From a virus (Duplodnaviria; Caudoviricetes), in IMG/VR virus record IMGVR_UViG_3300042566_001028, positions 14,281 to 78,280 of that record: a stretch of 64,000 nucleotides of DNA; one strand, written 5' to 3'. A program made the position numbers and the translations under genes. Positions within the stretch are counted from its first letter, which is position 1; each line of letters starts with the position of its first letter. Shown here piece after piece: positions 14,036 to 58,235 of the stretch. Below the pieces are notes generated by a model. The model saw nothing but the letters and a program-made list of their open reading frames with translations. It was not told the DNA's origin and made no database searches.

Positions 14036-14698
14036 ATGATAGATAACACACAAGACAGATTAATTATTGAACAAGAAAATTCAATGGTAAAAAGATATGA
14101 TTTAGTAAATTATATTATAAATAAATATGAGTTTAAAGACTACTTAGAAATAGGTGTAGCATTTGGCCATTGTATTAGAAAAATAGAAGCACCAAATAAA
14201 GATGGAGTTGACCCCGTAGTTGAAGAAAATGTTAGTTGTCCAGAAATAAATTACAAAATGGGTTCTAATGAATTTTTTGCATTACCAGAAATAACTAATA
14301 AAAAATATGATGTTATTTTTATAGATGGATTACATCATTCCGAACAAGTTGATATTGATATTAAAAATGCGTTAGAACATTTAAACCATGGTGGTTTTGT
14401 ATTTATACACGATTGCAATCCACCTTCATATGAATCACAATTAGTACCCAGAGTTGCAGCTGCTTGGAATGGTGATGTTTGGAAATCTATTGTAAAATTA
14501 AGACATTTGGATATTGATTTGGATATATCAGTAGTTAATACCGATTATGGTGTTGGTATTATTACACATGGAAAAAATTCCCCAATCGATAAATTTACAT
14601 TAGAAGAATCATTGCAATGGGATGTATTTTCAAGTGATAGAAAATATTTTTTAAACCTATTGGAAATTGATGAATTTTTTGATAAATATTCTTACTAA
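14036..14698 (+). CDS. class I SAM methyltransferase (Methyltransf_24-like)
   Basis: YLEIGV, GVDP, YDVIFIDGLH, GGFVFIHD. Confidence 0.88.
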   Translation: MIDNTQDRLIIEQENSMVKRYDLVNYIINKYEFKDYLEIGVAFGHCIRKIEAPNKDGVDPVVEENVSCPEINYKMGSNEFFALPEITNKKYDVIFIDGLHHSEQVDIDIKNALEHLNHGGFVFIHDCNPPSYESQLVPRVAAAWNGDVWKSIVKLRHLDIDLDISVVNTDYGVGIITHGKNSPIDKFTLEESLQWDVFSSDRKYFLNLLEIDEFFDKYSY

Positions 14699-33245: not shown

Positions 33246-35834
33246 ATGAAACAAATATTAGTTACATTATTTCTTTTAATATCATTTTTAGGGTTTGGTC
33301 AGTCGGTTTCGGCACCAGACCCTAAATCATTTACTGTCAATACGACTGGACAAGATGCTAGTGGATTTGAGTTAAATGGATTTAGTTCAACTGCAACTTT
33401 ATTAGCATCGGTTAGTTTAGTAAATCCACCAACGGGCACAACATTCTATTTGAATACTTACACAGGTTTGACTGCAGCAAGTGGGTTTAATTTAATTGGT
33501 AATAAAACCAAATTAGTGTTTACGGGAACAATGGCCAGTATCAATACGGCATTATCATCTTTAAAAATAAACACAGGTTCTATTTCAGGTGATATTGTCA
33601 TATCAGTCGCAGCAACTATAAATCCAACTGGTTTCTTTTACAATGGAACAAACGGACACTTTTATAGACCAATATCAACAGGAACAAGCTATACGGGTGC
33701 AAGAGCAGCGGCATTAAATACTACATTTAAAGGCCAGACTGGATATTTAGTAACAATAACTTCAGCAGATGAAGATTCATTTGTATTCAATAATGTTCCA
33801 CAAACAAATATTTGGTTTGCATTAACCGATGAAGAAACCGAAGGTCAATGGAAAATTGATGCTGGTCCTGAAAAGGGAACTTTAATCAAAACATCAAACG
33901 GACAAACTGCGGGTAATATACAAGGACAGTACAATAACTGGGCACCTGGTGAACCAAACAATAGTGGTAACGAAGATTATGCGGTAACAAAATGGAACGG
34001 TTCTCAATGGAATGATTTACCGAATGGATTTAGTTGCCCTTATGTAATTGAATACGGAACTTGGACTAACCCTGATGATGCAACATTTACGGAGTTTTAT
34101 ACTAATTCGGTTTCTCATTCAAACGGGCAAACACTAAAGGCTTTATTCAATTTTACATTTGGTTCGGTGATTGATAAAAGTAAGTTTTCGGCACAAATAT
34201 TCAAAAGAAATGATGCAACTTCTACATGGGAAACAACATCTGGATATAAATCATTAAGTGGTTTGGGTAAGGTATATCTTTCAAATCAAATAGATACAGC
34301 AAAACTTTATTCAACAGCAATTCAATTAGGAGCTGGGACATCCGATATGACACAATTCACTAATGCAGATATCGGTAAGGTTTATAAATTGACAACAACG
34401 GGTACAACTGGTGGTGGATGGGGAACGGATATCTATACAAGTGATTCTTACATACCCGCAATGGCAGTACATGCTGGTGTTTTAACAATCGGCCAAACAA
34501 AAGAAATTTATATTAAAATAGTTGAAGGAAAAAGTAGTTATTTAGGTTCAACCCGTAATGGAATCACAACGTCAGAATGGGGTGGATGGGGATTGAGTTA
34601 TCAATTTGTATCTCAACCATCTTCATACAAGGCAATATCATCACCTGGCCAAGTTGAATGGTGTGTAATATATGATTACGATGCATCAAATCAAAGATAT
34701 AGAGTTGGAATTGATAAAAGAGAATTTGATGGAACCAATGTATCACCAAATAATGTATCATCACTAAAATTATTTGATTTGTGGGATGGAAATGTAACAT
34801 TTGATAGTGAAGACATATATTGGGCAAATTATTGGGTTTATACATCTACACAATTTAATTATGCAGGTTCATCTTATTCATCGAATTTAAGAGCAGGAAA
34901 TGGATTTTATGGAGTAAGTAGTGAGTTTGCCTTTTCACAATTAGGTGCATACAAACAACACAAAATGGAACTAAATGAATACGATAATGCACAATTAAAA
35001 ACATTATATAATAACATTGTAACAGTATCGGATGTTTATTTGGCATTTAAGGAATTATCTAATAAGGGTTTATTTGGTAATCAAAGTGGTAATGAATTTG
35101 GATATGGTATTCAATATGTAAATGCAGATGTGGATGATAATGGTGTATTCAATGAAGTGGATACATATAAATTATTACAAAATTTAACGGGTGTAAATGA
35201 TTTAGTTAGCAGTTATACTTTGGATAATACTATAAAAGTAATACCTGACTCAATCTATAATTTAATTGGTAAATCAACGTGGAGTTCGTTTACATCATAT
35301 AAAGGTAAATCTTATTCATTTAGTTTATTGGATAATGTGTTGAATTACAATTACAATTTATCTGTGAGTTGGAAAGGTGACGTAAATCTATCTCATTCAG
35401 CAACACCGCCTTCAAATAACATTACTACAATGTCGGTTAGAACATCAATGAGTACACCGATATCAAATGAAATAAATACATCAATCATAACGGAATTGGT
35501 AGGTGATAGTGTTGTTGCATATATTACAATAGACCCATTACAACAAGAATTAGTAGGAACACAATTCAAATTAAATTACGATAATAGTTTATTAAAGTTT
35601 AGTAGTGTATCTTACAAAACAAAAGGTTCACCAACCAATTACGGAACTGACAAAGGTGATTATATCAATTTAGGTTCTTTAATTACGGATGGTGGAATTT
35701 TAGATAATACAACTGAATACAAAATTAGTTTCAAACCACAAACAAAATTAGATAATATATTGGGATTGATTTCAGTTGGATTTATGGATGCAGTAAATAA
35801 AAGTGGTAGAACATTAAAAGTAATAATGAAATAA
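33246..35834 (+). CDS. secreted adhesin: C-type lectin, LCCL, dockerin-like and cohesin-like domains
   Basis: GYLVTITSADE..WAPGEPNN..WND (CTL); WGTDIYTSDS..AVHAGVL (LCCL); ADVDDNGVFNEVD; GTQFKLNYD. Confidence 0.75.
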   Translation: MKQILVTLFLLISFLGFGQSVSAPDPKSFTVNTTGQDASGFELNGFSSTATLLASVSLVNPPTGTTFYLNTYTGLTAASGFNLIGNKTKLVFTGTMASINTALSSLKINTGSISGDIVISVAATINPTGFFYNGTNGHFYRPISTGTSYTGARAAALNTTFKGQTGYLVTITSADEDSFVFNNVPQTNIWFALTDEETEGQWKIDAGPEKGTLIKTSNGQTAGNIQGQYNNWAPGEPNNSGNEDYAVTKWNGSQWNDLPNGFSCPYVIEYGTWTNPDDATFTEFYTNSVSHSNGQTLKALFNFTFGSVIDKSKFSAQIFKRNDATSTWETTSGYKSLSGLGKVYLSNQIDTAKLYSTAIQLGAGTSDMTQFTNADIGKVYKLTTTGTTGGGWGTDIYTSDSYIPAMAVHAGVLTIGQTKEIYIKIVEGKSSYLGSTRNGITTSEWGGWGLSYQFVSQPSSYKAISSPGQVEWCVIYDYDASNQRYRVGIDKREFDGTNVSPNNVSSLKLFDLWDGNVTFDSEDIYWANYWVYTSTQFNYAGSSYSSNLRAGNGFYGVSSEFAFSQLGAYKQHKMELNEYDNAQLKTLYNNIVTVSDVYLAFKELSNKGLFGNQSGNEFGYGIQYVNADVDDNGVFNEVDTYKLLQNLTGVNDLVSSYTLDNTIKVIPDSIYNLIGKSTWSSFTSYKGKSYSFSLLDNVLNYNYNLSVSWKGDVNLSHSATPPSNNITTMSVRTSMSTPISNEINTSIITELVGDSVVAYITIDPLQQELVGTQFKLNYDNSLLKFSSVSYKTKGSPTNYGTDKGDYINLGSLITDGGILDNTTEYKISFKPQTKLDNILGLISVGFMDAVNKSGRTLKVIMK

Positions 35835-43732: not shown

Positions 43733-44368
43733 ATGAAAAAAGTATTATTGTTAGTTACACTATTAGTTATTAGTGTTACATTATTTGCACAAGATGTAGT
43801 AGTATTAAAACATACAAATTATACATCACATTTCAGTAAGTCAAAAAAATATCCAGTAATGGTAGAGTGGTGGGAAACCAAAGCAAAAGTAGGTTGTCCA
43901 ACTCCATTACCTCGTAAAGATAATTTCAAACCAGACCCATTGTTACCAGTTGAAACTAATATTGGAAACGACTATGTTGGTAGTGGGTATGATAGAGGAC
44001 ATTTGATGCCAGCAAAATCAAATCAATGCCAAACTCAAGCAGTTCAAGATGAGTGTTTCTACTTTTCTAATATGGTAGCACAAACACATAGATTGAATGC
44101 AGGAGATTGGAAATCATTGGAAACCTTAACAAGAGAAATTGCTGCAAGAGAAGATAGTGTTCACATTTGGGCAGGTAATGTTGGTGAGATTAAAAGAATT
44201 GGTAAAGTTGCAGTTCCAAAACAATGTTGGAAAGTTGTATATTCAAAGACATCAAACGAATGGATGTTTTTCTTATTTGAAAACGACTTATCAAATCCAG
44301 ATGGAATAAATAATAATAAAGTTTTAAGAGAAGATATAGAAAAATTAACAGGATTAAAATTTAAGTAA
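43733..44368 (+). CDS. secreted DNA/RNA non-specific endonuclease (NucA/EndoG-like)
   Basis: signal peptide; GYDRGHL, SNMVAQ, LNAGDWKSLE. Confidence 0.92.
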   Translation: MKKVLLLVTLLVISVTLFAQDVVVLKHTNYTSHFSKSKKYPVMVEWWETKAKVGCPTPLPRKDNFKPDPLLPVETNIGNDYVGSGYDRGHLMPAKSNQCQTQAVQDECFYFSNMVAQTHRLNAGDWKSLETLTREIAAREDSVHIWAGNVGEIKRIGKVAVPKQCWKVVYSKTSNEWMFFLFENDLSNPDGINNNKVLREDIEKLTGLKFK

Positions 44369-44811: not shown

Positions 44812-45465
44812 ATGAGTTATTTAGTAGCAAACATCCCACCAATAGAAGTTTATGTAGATAAAAGATTTCTATATGATTTTCAAAAAGATGAGATGGGTAA
44901 TTATTTGGGTGATGGTGAATGGGAAAGAGGTCATTGGGTTAGTGTAAAATCAATTCCAAATCGTGCACTATTATTTGAAACTTATATTGACAAGTTTGGT
45001 GCAGTATATGACAAATTACCTATACATGCATTCCGTTGGAGACCATTAGAAACGACAGATAAGGTGTTTCCTTTGGATTTCTTACAACTTTGGGATTGTT
45101 TATCATATAACATATCAGTCATTGAAAAAAGGGTATTAAGGGGTGTTAAAACCTATACTACAATGAAAGACCATTCAGTAGTAGAGGGTGATTATCTTTT
45201 TACAATTGATACATCACATTCTGACCCAAATGAAATTGATTGTGGGTGGAGTGAAACACCAAATGAACATAAATGTTATAATGTGTCTAAATTGGAAAAT
45301 GGCCAACTATGTGCACAACCAAATAATAGGACTAGATTTTATCAACCTAGTAGAACTAATGGTGTTTCTTTAATACCTTATTTTAGATATTCTACAAAAG
45401 TGTGGAAATGTGAGGATTTTGGAAAGTGGAGACCATCCGATACAAATTGGGATTACACAGAATAG
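44812..45465 (+). CDS. conserved phage hypothetical protein
   Basis: YLVANIPP, GAVYDKLPIHAF, LQLWDC, AQPNNR. Confidence 0.7.
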   Translation: MSYLVANIPPIEVYVDKRFLYDFQKDEMGNYLGDGEWERGHWVSVKSIPNRALLFETYIDKFGAVYDKLPIHAFRWRPLETTDKVFPLDFLQLWDCLSYNISVIEKRVLRGVKTYTTMKDHSVVEGDYLFTIDTSHSDPNEIDCGWSETPNEHKCYNVSKLENGQLCAQPNNRTRFYQPSRTNGVSLIPYFRYSTKVWKCEDFGKWRPSDTNWDYTE

Positions 45466-45785: not shown

Positions 45786-46149
45786 GGGGATGCTTTGGAA
45801 TTGATTGCTATGTAAATGGTAATATCACATGTAGACAAAGTAAGAATGTCTTTAAATACTTACAAAACAATAACTGACGAAAAGTCAACTATGACTTACA
45901 ACGACTTAATGGCGTTTGTAGGTATGGATTACGCTGTAGCAGCCTAACCAATCCCGCACACATCGTGGGACTTTAAATAGAATGTGAAATTGAGTGGAAA
46001 CTAACTGAACTCAAAATCGAGTTAGAATATTGATTATAATGAAATAATAAAACTTATATATTTGTCAGTTGTGAATAACTGAATAAACATGTGAGATGCT
46101 GATATTATTGATTTCTAGTAAGACACGAGTTCGACTCTCGTCATCTCCA
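45786..46149 (+). ncRNA. ssrA: tmRNA, predicted tag (A)DEKSTMTYNDLMAFVGMDYAVAA
   Basis: GGGGATG/CATCTCC-A acceptor with G3:U, T-arm ACGAGTTCGACTCTCGT, ATAACT-GAC resume site, tag ORF 45876-45947 ending YAVAA. Confidence 0.93.
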
Positions 46150-46209
46150 CAAATTTATTTAAGTATGGTAATCCTACTAACACAACTAGCGGACTTAAAT
46201 AAAAAAATA

Positions 46210-46241
46210 TTTGGTAACTTAAAAAAGTTATCGTATATTAC
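46210..46241 (+). promoter_or_regulatory. promoter for tRNA-fMet
   Basis: TTTGGTAAC...CGTATATTAC. Confidence 0.7.
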
Positions 46242-46250
46242 ATTTAATAT

Positions 46251-46322
46251 CGCAGGATAGAGCAGAGGTAGCTCACGTGGCTCATAACCACAAGGTCGGA
46301 GGTTCGAATCCTTCTCCTGCAA
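46251..46322 (+). tRNA. tRNA-fMet (CAT), initiator type
   Basis: C1:A72 mismatch, CTCATAA loop, GGTTCGAATCC. Confidence 0.9.
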
Positions 46323-46430: not shown

Positions 46431-46565
46431 TTTGGTAATGTTAAAAATGTTTCGTATATTACATAAGTAAATGAGAAACAATAGGTGATGAAAGATACTC
46501 GTTATTAAATTTACAAAAAAAGTTTTAAATAAATTTGGCAGAATAAAAAATTATTCGTATATTTA
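46431..46565 (+). promoter_or_regulatory. two tandem promoters upstream of the large ncRNA
   Basis: TTTGG..CGTATATT at 46431-46462 and 46534-46565. Confidence 0.65.
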
Positions 46566-46613
46566 TTAAAACCGAAAGAAAGTTCTTTAAAAGATTGAAA
46601 ATATTTTACATAG

Positions 46614-47475
46614 TGAGTTCGTCTCACATAGTAAACAACCGCCGCCTATGGTGGTTAAATAAACTACGAAAGTAGGATAAAGTGGATGTATTAAGTGATA
46701 CATCTGCGGCTACTCTCCCCGTAAGGAGAGACTAGCTTGAGTAGGCAAGTGGGATATCATTCTCGCTAAAGTAGTTGAGGGTAACACTTTAGGCGAATAG
46801 TGGGAATGGTTGGGGTAGTATAGATACTCCGACTGAGTTGGGAACAACAATAAGAATAACCCATAGAATATCAGTAAGAAGTGTAGACTTAATCCCTCTA
46901 CATCATTGCGGTATTCAGTTTCAAAGTTATCTTAACATCAAGCCATCCGAAAGGACGCAAGATAAGATAGTGTACAAGTGGTGTTGTTACCATCCTTATA
47001 TAGAGTTTGCCAAAACCTATATTTGAAGATGACTTAAAAAACCGCAGTAGGGATATTGCATCGGGTAGTTTAGTATTCTCTCGTTCAAAAGATGAGGGAG
47101 CTAGTGGTAAACCACTACCTGAATAATTCTATAAACTAAAACTCAATTTTGAATAGCATTTTCAAAAAATACAATTTAAAAATTAAGCTTAAGTGTTTAC
47201 CAGTTGCAGATGAAAGGTGTGTACATAGTTAAGAGTTGTTCTTAGCCACGATACCTCCGCAAGAGGTCTGTGATTCTACCGAAAGGTTTCTAATTCCGCA
47301 AGAACTAATCAGGCTGCGAGGCTTGAAGAAAATGATTAAGTAGAGAGTAATCGGCAACTTAAAGACTGATAGTCTAAAATCATCCACATTGAATTGGTAC
47401 TACTCAAAAGGTAGTGGAAACGGAAGGAAACAAATAATCTTTCTAAAGCTGGTTCACCAAATAGAGTATTCTCAT
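46614..47475 (+). ncRNA. large structured RNA, GOLLD-like (~860 nt)
   Basis: no credible ORF; elevated GC; roughly 20 hairpins, several with GNRA-type loops; two domains split by an AT-rich linker; adjacent to tRNAs. Confidence 0.7.
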
Positions 47476-47485
47476 CTATTTATAA

Positions 47486-47557
47486 GCGGTTTTAGTGTAA
47501 TAGTAGCACTCCTAGCATTCCAGTTAGGGAGAGGTGGGGCAGAACCATTTTACCGCT
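47486..47557 (+). tRNA. aberrant tRNA-Gly-like gene
   Basis: GCG/CGC acceptor with U73, cloverleaf layout; no D-loop GG, T-loop GGCAGAA, irregular ATTCCA loop. Confidence 0.55.
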
Positions 47558-47656
47558 CAATACGAAGATTTTCGTGGTCTACCTTTTTGGCTGTTTCTTA
47601 CTCAACAGTCGTTTCGTTTAAATTAGACCTAAAAGATAGAACGATATAATAAAATT

Positions 47657-47851
47657 GGAAGTAAGTGTTTTGGGGAGGATTTTGACACTAAAAATGCAAT
47701 CAGAAACGATACACGATTGCCGGATTCGTAGTCGTACACTACAAGAGTTACCGCCTCCTATAAACTCTATTTTTGTGCAAAGTAATTTAATGAGGCTAGT
47801 ATTAACCGGAGCATGACTTGACGTGGCGTATTTTGAAATTGAATTACTTTT
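47657..47851 (+). ncRNA. unidentified multi-stem RNA (~195 nt)
   Basis: AAGTAA/TTACTT closure; AGTGTT/GACACT, GCAATC/GATTGC, GTAGT/ACTAC, GAGTT/AACTC stems; GGAGG/CCTCC loop-loop complementarity. Confidence 0.5.
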
Positions 47852-47886
47852 TAACATTAAACAAAAAAATTAGATATATATTAACA

Positions 47887-47976
47887 ATGAGAACTCTAAC
47901 ACATACACTTTGTAGTCAACCGAATCAGATTTGGATTGGCAATTTCGTGCAGTTAGAGGATACGGATGTAGGATAA
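47887..47976 (+). CDS. putative attenuator leader peptide MRTLTHTLCSQPNQIWIGNFVQLEDTDVG
   Basis: 29-codon ORF overlapping alternative pairing segments, ending ~30 nt before a terminator. Confidence 0.6.
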   Translation: MRTLTHTLCSQPNQIWIGNFVQLEDTDVG

Positions 47977-48002
47977 AATGTAATAATTTTTGAATAATAT
48001 TG

Positions 48003-48036
48003 AAAAACCTCTGACTAAAAAGTTAGGGGTTTTTTT
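48003..48036 (+). terminator. intrinsic terminator (attenuator 3:4 hairpin) directly before the tRNA array
   Basis: CCTCTGACT-AAAA-AGTTAGGGG plus T7. Confidence 0.85.
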
Positions 48037-48041
48037 GTTTT

Positions 48042-48123
48042 GGGAGTATCGCATAGTGGCAATTGCGGCTGACTGTAAATCAGCTCTCTTTCGAGTTCGG
48101 TGGTTCGAGTCCATCTACTCTCA
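48042..48123 (+). tRNA. tRNA-Tyr (GTA)
   Basis: cloverleaf, CTGTAAA loop, long variable arm. Confidence 0.93.
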
Positions 48124-48129
48124 CAAAAT

Positions 48130-48203
48130 TCTCACTTAGCTCAGTTGGTTAGAGCGTCGCACTGTTAATGCGAAAGTCCTAAGTTCAAGTCTTAGAGTGA
48201 GAG
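48130..48203 (+). tRNA. tRNA-Asn (GTT)
   Basis: cloverleaf, CTGTTAA loop, G73. Confidence 0.93.
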
Positions 48204-48212
48204 CAAACAAAA

Positions 48213-48285
48213 GCGGATGTAGCTCAATTGGTAGAGTGCGTTCCTTCCAAGTACGAAGTTGCAGGTTCGAGCCCTGTCATCCGCT
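48213..48285 (+). tRNA. tRNA-Gly (TCC)
   Basis: GCGGATG/CATCCGC-T, CTTCCAA loop. Confidence 0.93.
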
Positions 48286-48290
48286 CAAAC

Positions 48291-48353
48291 GGTTACCAAT
48301 CCGGAACACGCCTGGAAGTTTAGTGTATTAGCACACCAGGAAATGGTGATAAC
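48291..48353 (+). ncRNA. unidentified small structured element within the tRNA array
   Basis: TTACCA/TGGTGA, CCTGG/CCAGG, GTGT/GCAC nested stems. Confidence 0.35.
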
Positions 48354-48365
48354 AAAATTGGAAAT

Positions 48366-48436
48366 TGTTCGGTGGTGTAACGGTAGCACAATTGTTTTTG
48401 GTACAATTAGTTCTGGTTCGAATCCAGCCCGAATAA
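48366..48436 (+). tRNA. tRNA-Gln (TTG)
   Basis: ATTGT-TTTTGGT-ACAAT arm, GGTTCGAATCC. Confidence 0.9.
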
Positions 48437-48441
48437 CATAT

Positions 48442-48510
48442 GCGTGGTAGGCTATGGCAGCCAATTGGTCTCCAAAACCAAAGGAGAGGGTTCAATTCCT
48501 TCACTGCGTG
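48442..48510 (+). tRNA. tRNA-Trp (CCA)
   Basis: TTGGT-CTCCAAA-ACCAA arm, G73; short D arm, G:U-rich acceptor. Confidence 0.82.
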
Positions 48511-48515
48511 CAATT

Positions 48516-48588
48516 AGTTCTATGGTGTAATTGGATAGCACGAAACACTACGGATGTTTTAGTTTGGGTTCGATTCCTAATAGGACTA
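48516..48588 (+). tRNA. tRNA-Arg (ACG)
   Basis: AAACA-CTACGGA-TGTTT arm. Confidence 0.9.
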
Positions 48589-48594
48589 CAATAT

Positions 48595-48664
48595 GGTCAG
48601 TTTGGTCGTGGAGGCCGGTGGGACTGCAAATCTTACGGAGTTGGTTCGATTCCAACATTGACCT
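48595..48664 (+). tRNA. tRNA-Cys (GCA)
   Basis: CTGCAAA loop, U73. Confidence 0.88.
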
Positions 48665-48669
48665 CAAAT

Positions 48670-48744
48670 GGTGTTTGAAGCATTAAGGTGATGCGTCGGT
48701 TTGTGGAGCCGGATAAGACGGGTCGGTACCGTCCTTACACCCCA
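48670..48744 (+). tRNA. tRNA-His (GTG)
   Basis: G-1 with C73 and encoded CCA, TTGTGGA loop; atypical T-loop GTCGGTA. Confidence 0.82.
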
Positions 48745-48746
48745 AC

Positions 48747-48820
48747 ACCCGTATGGCGGAATTGGCATACGCAGTGGTCTTAGAAGCCATAAGTTACAGG
48801 TTCGACTCCTGTTACGGGTA
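48747..48820 (+). tRNA. tRNA-Leu (TAG) with short variable loop
   Basis: GCGGAATTGGCATACGC D arm, CTTAGAA loop, A73. Confidence 0.88.
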
Positions 48821-48826
48821 CAAATG

Positions 48827-48858
48827 TTTGGTAAAGTAAATTATTATTCGTATATTTA
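48827..48858 (+). promoter_or_regulatory. promoter for the second tRNA block
   Basis: TTTGGTAA...CGTATATTTA. Confidence 0.7.
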
Positions 48859-48863
48859 ATTTA

Positions 48864-48987
48864 TAAGGTTGATTGGGAACAAAAGTAGCCCGCTAAAACG
48901 AGTTAGTGAAAATCTAATACGCTACTACCGGTTAGTAAAGCCAATCATAAAAGTAATCGTCCACGCACCCATCTTTTACTTTCCTTA
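48864..48987 (+). ncRNA. unidentified structured RNA (~125 nt) heading the second tRNA block
   Basis: TAAGG/CCTTA, TGATTGG/CCAATCA, AGTAGC/GCTACT, AAAGTAA/TTACTTT stems. Confidence 0.5.
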
Positions 48988-48990
48988 AAT

Positions 48991-50009: not shown

Positions 50010-50519
50010 ATGACACTAAAAGAAGCAACTGCCGAATTACATAGTAAGGCAGAAAAAATGATGTTCAATCAAAGAATGTTTAGAGGTGAGTTAAGTCAAC
50101 ATGAATACTTAAATTATCTTATTCAACAATCTTACATTTTTCAAGAAATAGAAAATAGAAATTTACCACATCCAAATTTGAAAAGATTAAGTTCAATCAA
50201 TGAGGATATAAACGAATTGGGTGGATATACATTTAAGATAAGTAAACCAACAACGGATTATGTTGTATATTTGGGTGACTTAAATCAAAGTTCATTAAAT
50301 GCACACATCTATTTAAATTACTTAGCAATTATGTTCGGTGGACAAATGATGAAATCAAAAGTTCCAGGTAGTGGTAAGATGTATGAGTTTGATGGTGATA
50401 TGATGGAATTGATTGGTAGTGTAAGAGCAATTCAAAATGACGAAATGGCTGACGAAGTAAATAAAGGATTTCAGTATATTATAAACATATTAGATGAGTT
50501 ACAAACAAACGCTGGATAA
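50010..50519 (+). CDS. hemO: heme oxygenase (biliverdin-producing)
   Basis: LKEATAELHSKAE (proximal His), AHIYLNY...FGGQM. Confidence 0.88.
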   Translation: MTLKEATAELHSKAEKMMFNQRMFRGELSQHEYLNYLIQQSYIFQEIENRNLPHPNLKRLSSINEDINELGGYTFKISKPTTDYVVYLGDLNQSSLNAHIYLNYLAIMFGGQMMKSKVPGSGKMYEFDGDMMELIGSVRAIQNDEMADEVNKGFQYIINILDELQTNAG

Positions 50520-51123
50520 TATAGCTTCTGAATTAGAATCTATAATGCAATTAACAGCTGCATTTGAAATACCTACTGAGGATTTTGGGTGGAGTAATAA
50601 AAGATATGTAGGTGACAATTTTCGTATGGCACATATTGAAAGGTATAGTGATAAGGCTTTAGAGGTTCTACACTTTACTTGTTTTCCAAATCCTACATTT
50701 CAACATCCTATTTTTGGGTTTGATATTATTACAACCGATAAAAAACCATTGGCAGCATTTATGGATTGGTCACCTGTTGATAATAAAGTTAGTATAGAAA
50801 GTAGATATACATTTGAAAAACCATATCCATTACCTGAATGGGCAAAGTTAATATTTTCTCCAAATGCATTAGCAATAATCCCAAATGATTACGAAATGGT
50901 TAGTTTATCAAATAATGTTATTGAAAGTTTTGAAATTTATTTAGATGTATTAAACAATTCAAAAGAAAAACCCAATAGAACCGATTATATAGTGGCAGCT
51001 CAAAACCGATATTGTGATAATCAACAAAAGAACGAAAGAACTTATAATGTGTTGAAATCCAAATTAGGTAAAGATAGAGCTAAATACTTTATGGAAAATA
51101 TCCTATTTCCGAAGATAGTATAA
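50494..51123 (+). CDS. ferredoxin-dependent bilin reductase (PcyA/PcyX-like)
   Basis: LEVLHFTCFP, PIFGFDII, AAFMDWSP, LPEWA..IFS, QNRYC..QQKNERT; adjacent to hemO. Confidence 0.85.
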   Translation: MSYKQTLDNIASELESIMQLTAAFEIPTEDFGWSNKRYVGDNFRMAHIERYSDKALEVLHFTCFPNPTFQHPIFGFDIITTDKKPLAAFMDWSPVDNKVSIESRYTFEKPYPLPEWAKLIFSPNALAIIPNDYEMVSLSNNVIESFEIYLDVLNNSKEKPNRTDYIVAAQNRYCDNQQKNERTYNVLKSKLGKDRAKYFMENILFPKIV

Positions 51124-56951: not shown

Positions 56952-58235
56952 ATGAGAAATACACAAAGTAACAAAAAAGTTAAAACTACAAAAACAATGG
57001 TAAAAAGAACAACAACAAAAGTGAAAGACTTTACGGTAGGTTTCACAAACGAAATTTACAAAGTAATTCAAGTAGGTAGAACATTCGCAATGTTAACTAC
57101 AAACAATCAGCCGGTAACTAAGTTAGTCGGTGTAAGTAAGCAAACTATGAAAAAAGCAATGGATGAGAATAAAGCAATCCAAGCTTACATAGGTAAAACA
57201 GGTAAGTTATCCTACAAAATGGTAGAGATGGATGAGTTCAAAAAACATTCAGCTACTATATCGGATGAGGCGTGTGATTCAGTACAAGAAGCATTTGAGA
57301 CACATGACTTACTAAAAGAATTTATCCACACAAAGGGTAAGGACTTAAAACCAAACGGACTATTCATTGAAGAATTGAAGTGGAAGTATTTACTCCGTTC
57401 AGCAGTTAGAGGTAAGAATATCTTAATGACAGGTCCAACGGGTTGTGGTAAGACATTAGCTGCACAATCGTTAGTGAAGTCTTTGAAACGACCTGATTTC
57501 TATTTCAACTTAGGTGCTACACAAGATGCGAGAGCAACCTTAATCGGTAACACACATTTCAACAAAGAGAACGGAACATTCTTTAGTGAGTCTGCATTCG
57601 TTAAAGCAATCAAAACTCCTAACGCAATTATCTTATTGGATGAGTTGAGTAGAGCTCACCCAGAAGCTGCGAATATCCTTATGACAGTATTAGACGCAGG
57701 TCAAAGATACTTACGTTTGGATGAGGCAGAAGGTTCACCAATTATCAAAGTAGCATCGGGCGTGACGTTTATTGCGACGGCGAATATTGGTGGAGAGTAT
57801 ACTGCAACGAGAGTAATGGATAGAGCATTGATGGATAGATTCGTTCAAATCGAAATGGACTTATTAGACAAAGAGGGTGAACTTGCCTTATTGAAGTTTA
57901 AGTTCCCTGAAGCTGATGAGTATTCATTGAACGCATTAGCAGAGATTGCTGATACTACTCGTCAATTGATTAAGACTGACGCGAGTAAGATTTCAACTAT
58001 CGTTTCTACGAGGGTGAATGTGGAAGCAGCCGGACTTATCTATGATGGTTTCACATTGTTCGAAGCAGCAAACATTGCAATCTTACCTTATTTCAGTAAT
58101 GATGGTGGGTTAGATAGTGAGAGAGTATTTATGACTCAATTACTACAAAAATATATTAAGTCGGATGATGAATCTCAACTTTTCAATGAAGTGAAAGATG
58201 ATGAGACAACCGATGACGAAACTATCGTTTGGTAG
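56952..58235 (+). CDS. MoxR/CbbQ/CobS-like AAA+ ATPase
   Basis: GPTGCGKT, LLDELSRA, ATAN, DRALMDRF, STR. Confidence 0.92.
   Translation: MRNTQSNKKVKTTKTMVKRTTTKVKDFTVGFTNEIYKVIQVGRTFAMLTTNNQPVTKLVGVSKQTMKKAMDENKAIQAYIGKTGKLSYKMVEMDEFKKHSATISDEACDSVQEAFETHDLLKEFIHTKGKDLKPNGLFIEELKWKYLLRSAVRGKNILMTGPTGCGKTLAAQSLVKSLKRPDFYFNLGATQDARATLIGNTHFNKENGTFFSESAFVKAIKTPNAIILLDELSRAHPEAANILMTVLDAGQRYLRLDEAEGSPIIKVASGVTFIATANIGGEYTATRVMDRALMDRFVQIEMDLLDKEGELALLKFKFPEADEYSLNALAEIADTTRQLIKTDASKISTIVSTRVNVEAAGLIYDGFTLFEAANIAILPYFSNDGGLDSERVFMTQLLQKYIKSDDESQLFNEVKDDETTDDETIVW

Follow-up and report, generated by a model that had tools for sequence, protein, structure and literature searches.

A candidate leader-peptide attenuator between a GOLLD RNA and a tRNA gene block in a Caudoviricetes genome

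Leader-peptide attenuation is a textbook form of gene control for amino-acid operons, and the tRNA arrays of phages are commonly regarded as constitutive cargo. In this study, we describe a candidate regulatory element of the former kind that lies ahead of genes of the latter kind. The element is located between a GOLLD RNA and a block of tRNA genes in a virus of the Caudoviricetes (IMG/VR record IMGVR_UViG_3300042566_001028), within a stretch of 64,000 nucleotides (nt; positions 14,281 to 78,280 of the record) that we call the window and to whose first letter all window positions below refer. The viral record as a whole spans 78 kb and is estimated to be 36% complete. A small open reading frame (ORF) of 29 codons is followed there by an intrinsic terminator, and segments within both have alternative pairing partners. 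Judging from these sequence features, we consider, with moderate confidence, that the locus is best read as a leader-peptide (translation-coupled) transcription attenuator that would gate polymerase into the first tRNA block.

The closest described systems are the trp-type leaders of enterobacterial amino-acid operons, such as trpL, hisL, leuL, thrL, pheL and the ilv leaders, wherein a short translated ORF is followed by an intrinsic terminator. The present locus has the same layout, with an ORF that may be translated. The likeness extends to the helices, given that an antiterminator formed by segments 2 and 3 (2:3) shares the left arm of the terminator (3:4), a further helix (1:2) overlaps the ORF, and the alternative states are nearly iso-energetic. 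Unlike trp-type leaders, the ORF described here and its relatives lack a run of codons for any single amino acid and instead carry 17-20 different residues, and the genes downstream encode tRNAs rather than biosynthetic enzymes. The element is also phage-borne and sits on the tail of a GOLLD RNA, its segment 1 is placed at codons 3-5, its helix 1:2 is much weaker than 2:3, and its peptide sequence is itself conserved. The arrangement suggests a trp-type mechanism from which the regulatory codon run is absent and by which a different class of genes would be controlled.

Two other groups of leaders offer partial likenesses. The T-box riboswitches of Firmicutes are also terminator/antiterminator leaders, whose input is the charging status of a tRNA and which need no ORF. 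Unlike them, the present locus exhibits no specifier loop or T-box sequence that we could identify, and neither a T-box nor any other known leader was matched by Rfam at E values up to 1 between positions 44000 and 51000. As in pyrBI-type leaders and the arrest-peptide leaders tnaC, ermCL and secM, downstream expression would depend on where a ribosome stands on a short ORF. Arrest peptides have conserved peptide sequences, a feature that is shared by the leader described here. The stop codon is located 31 nt before segment 3, and thus a terminating ribosome cannot sterically block the hairpin as it does in pyrBI.

The locus also resembles known GOLLD-tRNA island loci, in that tRNA-Met, GOLLD and a tRNA array follow one another in this order. 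Excerpts from the GOLLD cryo-EM preprint (10.1101/2024.12.08.627333) place GOLLD near tRNA islands, locate env-38 GOLLD downstream of a Met-tRNA, and report pull-downs in which ribosomes bind GOLLD. Likewise, an excerpt of another report locates GOLLD inside a mycobacterial tRNA cluster (PMC6582537). The preprint excerpts mention neither the small ORF nor a switch located between GOLLD and the tRNAs, and the words terminator, peptide and 'open reading' have 0 occurrences in the preprint. In full-text searches of the literature, we found no description of leader-peptide attenuation for tRNA genes, whether of phages or not.

The original prediction, made from the letters of this DNA alone, proposed a trp-style attenuator composed of the ORF, four pairing segments and the terminator. 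By direct reading, the coordinates of the ORF, segments 1-4, the T tract and tRNA-Tyr are all as it claimed (Table 1). The ORF list reports the same frame from an upstream TTG, with an identical peptide. Segment 1 begins 7 nt past the ATG, and an intrinsic terminator, which the terminator scan places at 48002-48035, separates the leader ORF from the tRNA genes. Its run of seven T residues (48030-48036) is followed by GTTTT and ends 5 nt ahead of tRNA-Tyr, again as predicted.

Table 1. Features of the candidate attenuator and its surroundings, in window positions
Feature	Position	Strand	Remark
Phage promoter motif (TTGGTAA, 14 nt, CGTATATT) ahead of GOLLD	46432..46460	+	Last copy before the tRNA block
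GOLLD RNA, conserved 3' domain covered by the Rfam model	47061..47478	+	RF02032, 280.8 bits, E 4.6e-80
A/T-rich element GATATATATTA	47873..47883	+	Immediately 5' of the ATG
Leader ORF, 29 codons and stop	47887..47976	+	ATG 47887, TAA 47974-47976, read directly
Segment 1, CTCTAAC, codons 3-5	47894..47900	+	Pairs with segment 2
Segment 2, AGTTAGAGG, codons 22-25	47951..47959	+	Partner of segment 1 or segment 3
Segment 3, CCTCTGACT, left arm of terminator	48008..48016	+	Also partner of segment 2
Segment 4, AGTTAGGGG, right arm of terminator	48021..48029	+
T tract of intrinsic terminator (T7, G, T4)	48030..48041	+	Abuts tRNA-Tyr at 48042
First tRNA block: Tyr, Asn, Gly, Gln, Trp, Arg(ACG), Cys, ninth tRNA (48671-48741), Leu(TAG)	48042..48821	+
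Next copy of the phage promoter motif	48828..48856	+	7 nt past tRNA-Leu; heads the second tRNA block

In this single sequence, the two alternative helices differ in how readily they arise by chance. A full 9/9 complement to segment 3 within the 121 nt upstream was found in only 14 of 5000 dinucleotide shuffles. The 7/7 pairing between segments 1 and 2 was matched in 949 of 5000 shuffles (19%), and therefore helix 1:2 is not beyond chance when this sequence is considered by itself. A third copy of AGTTAGAGG, at 57404, is located inside a 427-aa ORF and was treated as a chance occurrence.

Stronger evidence comes from relatives, which were collected from viral and metagenome contigs. A motif search over 190 fetched loci and the window (191 sources) recovered the small ORF in 96 of them, some of these being one contig fetched twice, and they reduce to 63 distinct sequences. 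Every one of the 63 carries a hairpin with a perfect stem and a T run 26-37 nt past the stop codon. A conserved short ORF directly ahead of tRNA arrays had been expected, and in 58 of the 62 sequences that extend far enough to be tested a tRNA gene starts at most 40 nt from the T run, mostly 4-11 nt from it. The first of these tRNAs is Asn(GTT) in 55 cases and Tyr in 3. A lack of conservation of the ORF and the alternative pairing among relatives had been named beforehand as grounds for refutation, and both are instead kept across the 63 distinct sequences. Moreover, GOLLD is present upstream and on the same strand in all 20 relative loci scanned, with the end of the model 38 to ~930 nt before the ATG.

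The small-ORF family is abundant in lake metagenomes. A DNA search of GenBank phages yielded 95 records that matched the tRNA-Tyr part only, with none covering at least 80% of the query, and tblastn with a 52-aa leader gave no match among 50,697 GenBank phage records. The gene at 44812-45465 had served as the first anchor for collecting relatives; the tRNA region was adjacent to it in only 7 of 80 loci, and other anchors were then used. In three relatives, a tRNA-Gly or an unassigned tRNA-like gene lies between GOLLD and the small ORF (L004, 12766-12837; L103; L108), ~150-400 nt 5' of the ORF.

Base pairs were counted on a MAFFT alignment of the 63 sequences, of which one (L083) was out of register, leaving 62. 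A 2:3 antiterminator helix that is mutually exclusive with the terminator is conserved throughout: 95.6% of its cells are paired, versus 29-57% for a slid partner, and each of its seven core pairs is intact in 62 of 62 sequences. Two of these pairs change on both sides, namely columns 160:233 (UA in 42, UG in 11 and CG in 9 sequences) and 163:230 (AU in 43 and GC in 19). Thus, the compensatory covariation anticipated for the segments is present and is accompanied by wobble changes, at only about two events per pair. The terminator helix 3:4 is paired in 99.6% of cells. Helix 1:2, which overlaps the ORF and competes with 2:3, is also found, though it is weak. As aligned, 91.2% of its cells are paired, the unpaired ones coming from nine frame-shifted sequences, and after realignment all seven pairs form in 61 of 62 sequences. 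Its columns 17:163 (UA 34, UG 11, CG 8) and 20:160 (AU 42, GC 9, GU 1) vary in a manner that preserves pairing.

The pattern of change in segment 2 suggests that this stretch is constrained beyond its coding role. On a tree built without the segments, its core columns accumulate 0, 0, 2, 1, 0, 2 and 0 changes, versus 2-14 for the flanking coding columns. Synonymous codons for Leu and Glu vary elsewhere in the ORF (TTA 30/CTA 23; GAG 23/GAA 13) but never inside segment 2. The spacer from the stop codon to segment 3 is the most variable part, with 5-13 changes per column.

The small ORF is evolving as a coding sequence, as judged from its substitution pattern. Over the first 26 codons of 53 sequences, the ratio of nonsynonymous to synonymous polymorphism (pN/pS) is 0.41, and the entropy by codon position is 10.1, 12.1 and 16.0, with the third position varying most. 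Residues M1, K2, L6, H7, T8, W19, G21 and F25 are invariant, and several synonymous codons are used. The peptides range from 22 to 53 aa and share a conserved N-terminus (MKTLTLHTNC...W.GI.MF), whereas the middle and the C-terminus are variable or deleted. A motif resembling a Shine-Dalgarno (SD) sequence precedes only 4 of the 48 long ORFs in the window, and therefore the lack of one ahead of the leader is not evidence against its translation.

Given this coding signature, the locus might simply be an ordinary small phage protein gene, whose terminator also ends the GOLLD transcript, whose helices 1:2 and 2:3 stabilise its mRNA or control its translation rather than read-through, and behind which the tRNAs are made by basal read-through or other means. 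The conservation of the peptide along its length, with the pN/pS value and the eight invariant residues, is in keeping with such a gene, and the placement of segment 1 so near the ATG means that helix 1:2 could limit initiation. This proposal gives no reason for the way in which segment 2 follows changes in the left arm of the terminator, with two two-sided changes and no unpaired cell in 62 sequences. Nor does it account for deletions in the middle of the peptide that spare the segments: in forms of 29, 22 and 38-41 aa the middle is missing, and segments 1 and 2 are retained. Furthermore, the four leader peptides that were tried against PHROGs and Pfam matched no family. We regard the small-gene explanation as improbable. 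In nine sequences (L111, L175, L133-L138 and L142), two compensating indels shift codons 3-5, such that the peptide begins MKNFNL rather than MKTLTL, and the segment 1 motif CTTTAAC is kept. In the 22-aa leader of L083 (5108-5242), the ORF stops 1 nt short of segment 2, which places this segment outside it.

The distribution of promoter-like sequences bears on how the tRNA block would be transcribed. A motif consisting of TTGGTAA, 14 nt and CGTATATT occurs 14 times in the window, always on the + strand (3964, 20206, 21535, 30664, 35496, 43669, 45507, 46211, 46432, 48828, 49586, 51181, 54351 and 56885), with the copies at 35496 and 43669 being poorer fits. The copy at 46211 precedes tRNA-Met, and that at 46432 precedes GOLLD. 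A scan of the window for this motif found no copy within 46460-48828, and a promoter scan found no sigma-70-like site from the stop codon to the tRNA, which bears out the earlier claim that no consensus promoter lies between the ORF and the tRNA genes. The first tRNA block thus sits behind a terminator and lacks the promoter that the phage usually employs, whereas the second block has its own copy of the motif (48828). No second attenuator was seen on reading 48857-48990, ahead of that second block, although no dedicated search was made.

One could nonetheless propose that the hairpin merely terminates the GOLLD/ORF unit, that the tRNA block is served by a separate promoter whose type the scans miss, and that nothing is gated. 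The scans may indeed not fit the promoter type of the host, and the conserved A/T-rich element 5' of the ORF indicates that promoter classes besides the TTGGTAA motif may exist. On the other hand, in most relatives the T run is separated from the first tRNA by only 4-11 nt, no conserved promoter element is visible in the highly variable spacer between the stop codon and segment 3, and the motif known from this phage heads the second tRNA block rather than the first. We consider a separate promoter of this kind very improbable. The A/T-rich element itself is represented in relatives by a TATATA[CT]TTAT-like sequence at the same place, and could take part in translation initiation or act as a promoter of a different class. 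Also 5' of the ORF, a stretch of ~70 nt (47775-47850, containing GAGGCT, AACCGGAGCATGACTTG and GCGTATTTTGAAAT in this order) is kept in many relatives, and is replaced by a GC hairpin in others.

According to the attenuator model, transcription would begin upstream, most likely at the 46432 promoter, and would proceed via GOLLD and over the small ORF to terminator 3:4. Helix 2:3 would act as the antiterminator, with segment 2, located inside the 3' end of the ORF, alternatively pairing with segment 1. A ribosome positioned in the last third of the ORF or at its stop codon would cover segment 2, permit the terminator to form and leave the tRNA block silent. By contrast, a lagging ribosome would leave segment 2 available to pair with the newly emerging segment 3, and polymerase would read through into the tRNA genes. 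RNase P would then release the tRNAs from the transcript.

Folding calculations agree with part of this scheme. The minimum-energy fold of 47880-48041 combines helix 1:2 with the terminator (-37.2 kcal/mol, z -3.3, with 0 of 200 shuffles as good). Across the 62 sequences, the two global folds are near iso-energetic (mean difference +1.0 kcal/mol, sd 3.5), and as duplexes 1:2 and 2:3 reach -6.9 versus -11.9 kcal/mol. When the footprint of a ribosome was masked codon by codon in the full RNA, 2:3 was favoured only with the P site at codons 10-12 and 16-17, and the terminator was favoured from codon 18. In an RNA that ends at segment 3, a P site at codon 19 or later abolished 2:3. The branch in which a late ribosome, or one at the stop codon, masks segment 2 and permits termination is therefore robust in these models.

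Several results weigh against the attenuator model. Most pertinent to the logic, the terminator persists at equilibrium when a ribosome is placed on codons 1-9 of the full RNA (P(3:4) 0.79-0.96), such that antitermination by an early ribosome is not reproduced by equilibrium folding, as distinct from the late-ribosome part. In the RNA ending at segment 3, helix 2:3 forms (0.97) whether an early ribosome is present or not. Given that 2:3 prevails without any ribosome, the rule that no translation leads to termination is thermodynamically unsupported, and this branch of the trp scheme would depend on kinetics. Because masking codons 1-9 yields no antitermination, we do not accept thermodynamics by itself as a sufficient test of the proposed logic. 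Of the 1:2/2:3/3:4 logic in the original prediction, what is retained is the set of three exclusive helices, whereas equilibrium folding with an early ribosome still ends in termination.

Other adverse points concern the comparative data. Independent compensatory events are few, with a minimum of two changes each at columns 160 and 163, and a test on independent pairs found 2 of 2 in the same direction (p 0.5), too few pairs for significance. RNAalifold, run on the same alignment with no structure supplied, predicts the terminator helix only, as would be expected if the locus were an ordinary small gene. The purifying selection along the whole peptide also fits a functional micro-protein. Four of the 62 testable sequences (L186, L177, L008 and L004) have no tRNA call within 40 nt of the T run. 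Finally, many early leader codons had been matched to the tRNAs encoded downstream, and this match does not amount to significant enrichment: 18 of the 29 codons in the leader are read by the tRNAs of the window (background 0.465, p 0.068), and 10 of 29 by those of the first block (background 0.223, p 0.092).

RNA libraries provide points on both sides. Here we relied on Logan contigs from four freshwater metatranscriptome runs; such contigs give no starts, ends, strands or levels. They cover GOLLD at 46574-47443, and, in favour of the model, over the ORF region they span 47811-47972 and 47820-47945. One further contig runs from 47868 to 48036 and then joins at 48208, which corresponds to the gene order of a relative. 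The contig depth over the ORF is low (2.9-8.6), and DNA carry-over is possible. GOLLD contigs are far deeper than ORF contigs, which would fit an RNA that ends or is processed upstream and hence a separate small gene, although contig depth is a poor measure. The large GOLLD depth sums related RNAs from other phages, and the low-cover bins over the ORF and the tRNA block are uninformative.

If the attenuator model is adopted, the question arises as to what the leader may sense. As had been claimed, the leader has no run of a single amino acid and uses 17 distinct residues among its 29. We found no run or excess of regulatory codons of the sort that marks known attenuators, and most relatives use 19-20 residues. 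For comparison, the background mean is 13.9 distinct residues, and a fraction of 0.057 of background windows reaches 17. Many relatives include all 20 amino acids within 39-53 residues, for which the background fractions are 0.000-0.027. The median background fraction that reaches the diversity of the leader is 0.023 over the 63 sequences, which share ancestry, and the trait is kept across length variants. Among loci with long flanks, leaders with 20 residues accompany arrays that cover 20 amino acids (L014 and L087). The 29-aa leaders are devoid of Ala and Lys, and so are their tRNA arrays. There is a hint here, from two clades only, that the residue set of the leader tracks the tRNA repertoire of the phage.

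Because the leader samples many amino acids, its input is likely overall decoding speed rather than one amino acid. We tentatively propose, with well under even confidence, that it serves as a pan-amino-acid 'speedometer' borne by the tail of the GOLLD transcript. Whenever any charged tRNA became scarce, for example through host anticodon nucleases, host shut-off or starvation, the ribosome would be delayed before segment 2, which would open the terminator and switch on replacement tRNAs.

Alternatively, the switch may be real and its input something other than general decoding speed, such as a nascent-peptide arrest that answers a small molecule, or a factor (a protein, a tRNA or GOLLD) that binds segment 1 or 2. 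Such an input would account for the conservation of the N-terminal peptide sequence itself, beyond its codons. It would also suit the constant adjacency of GOLLD (20 of 20 loci scanned), given the binding of ribosomes to GOLLD in pull-downs that the preprint excerpts report (10.1101/2024.12.08.627333). The binding partner is still hypothetical, the Rfam search described above matched no T-box or known leader, and the all-amino-acid make-up is more simply viewed as a sampling of all tRNAs. We deem a different input unlikely.

The attenuator model, if true, would describe a virus that gauges the decoding capacity of its host and replies with tRNAs of its own, and this would be relevant to how phages withstand defences that cleave tRNA. 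It would also provide a compact natural sensor for the state in which any amino acid or tRNA is limiting, and GOLLD, an RNA nanocage without an assigned function, would gain a fixed and testable genetic partner. Should the more specific speedometer proposal be true, it would be the first case in which decoding speed exerts feedback control on tRNA genes, and would give GOLLD its first functional link.

The neighbouring features complete the description of the locus. The GOLLD match exceeds the Rfam cut-off of 150 bits and covers model positions 1-416 of 416, and the variable 5' part of this RNA probably starts near 46470-46570. The predicted block of nine tRNA genes was recovered in two steps: ARAGORN calls eight tRNAs in 48042-48821, and Rfam adds the ninth at 29.2 bits, barely at its cut-off of 29. 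By synteny with relative locus L003, this ninth tRNA is probably tRNA-His. A gap of ~80 nt within the first block (48287-48365) has no tRNA called by ARAGORN or Rfam. A tRNA-Met is located at 46251, and a phage transfer-messenger RNA (tmRNA) with the tag peptide DEKSTMTYNDLMAFVGMDYAVAA at 45786-46152, both found by Rfam. The tmRNA is present in the five relatives examined, with an identical tag in four and one residue different in L014. Directly after the tRNA region, at 50010-51123, are genes for a heme oxygenase (PF01126, E 1.3e-14) and a ferredoxin-dependent bilin reductase (PF05996, E 4.1e-27).

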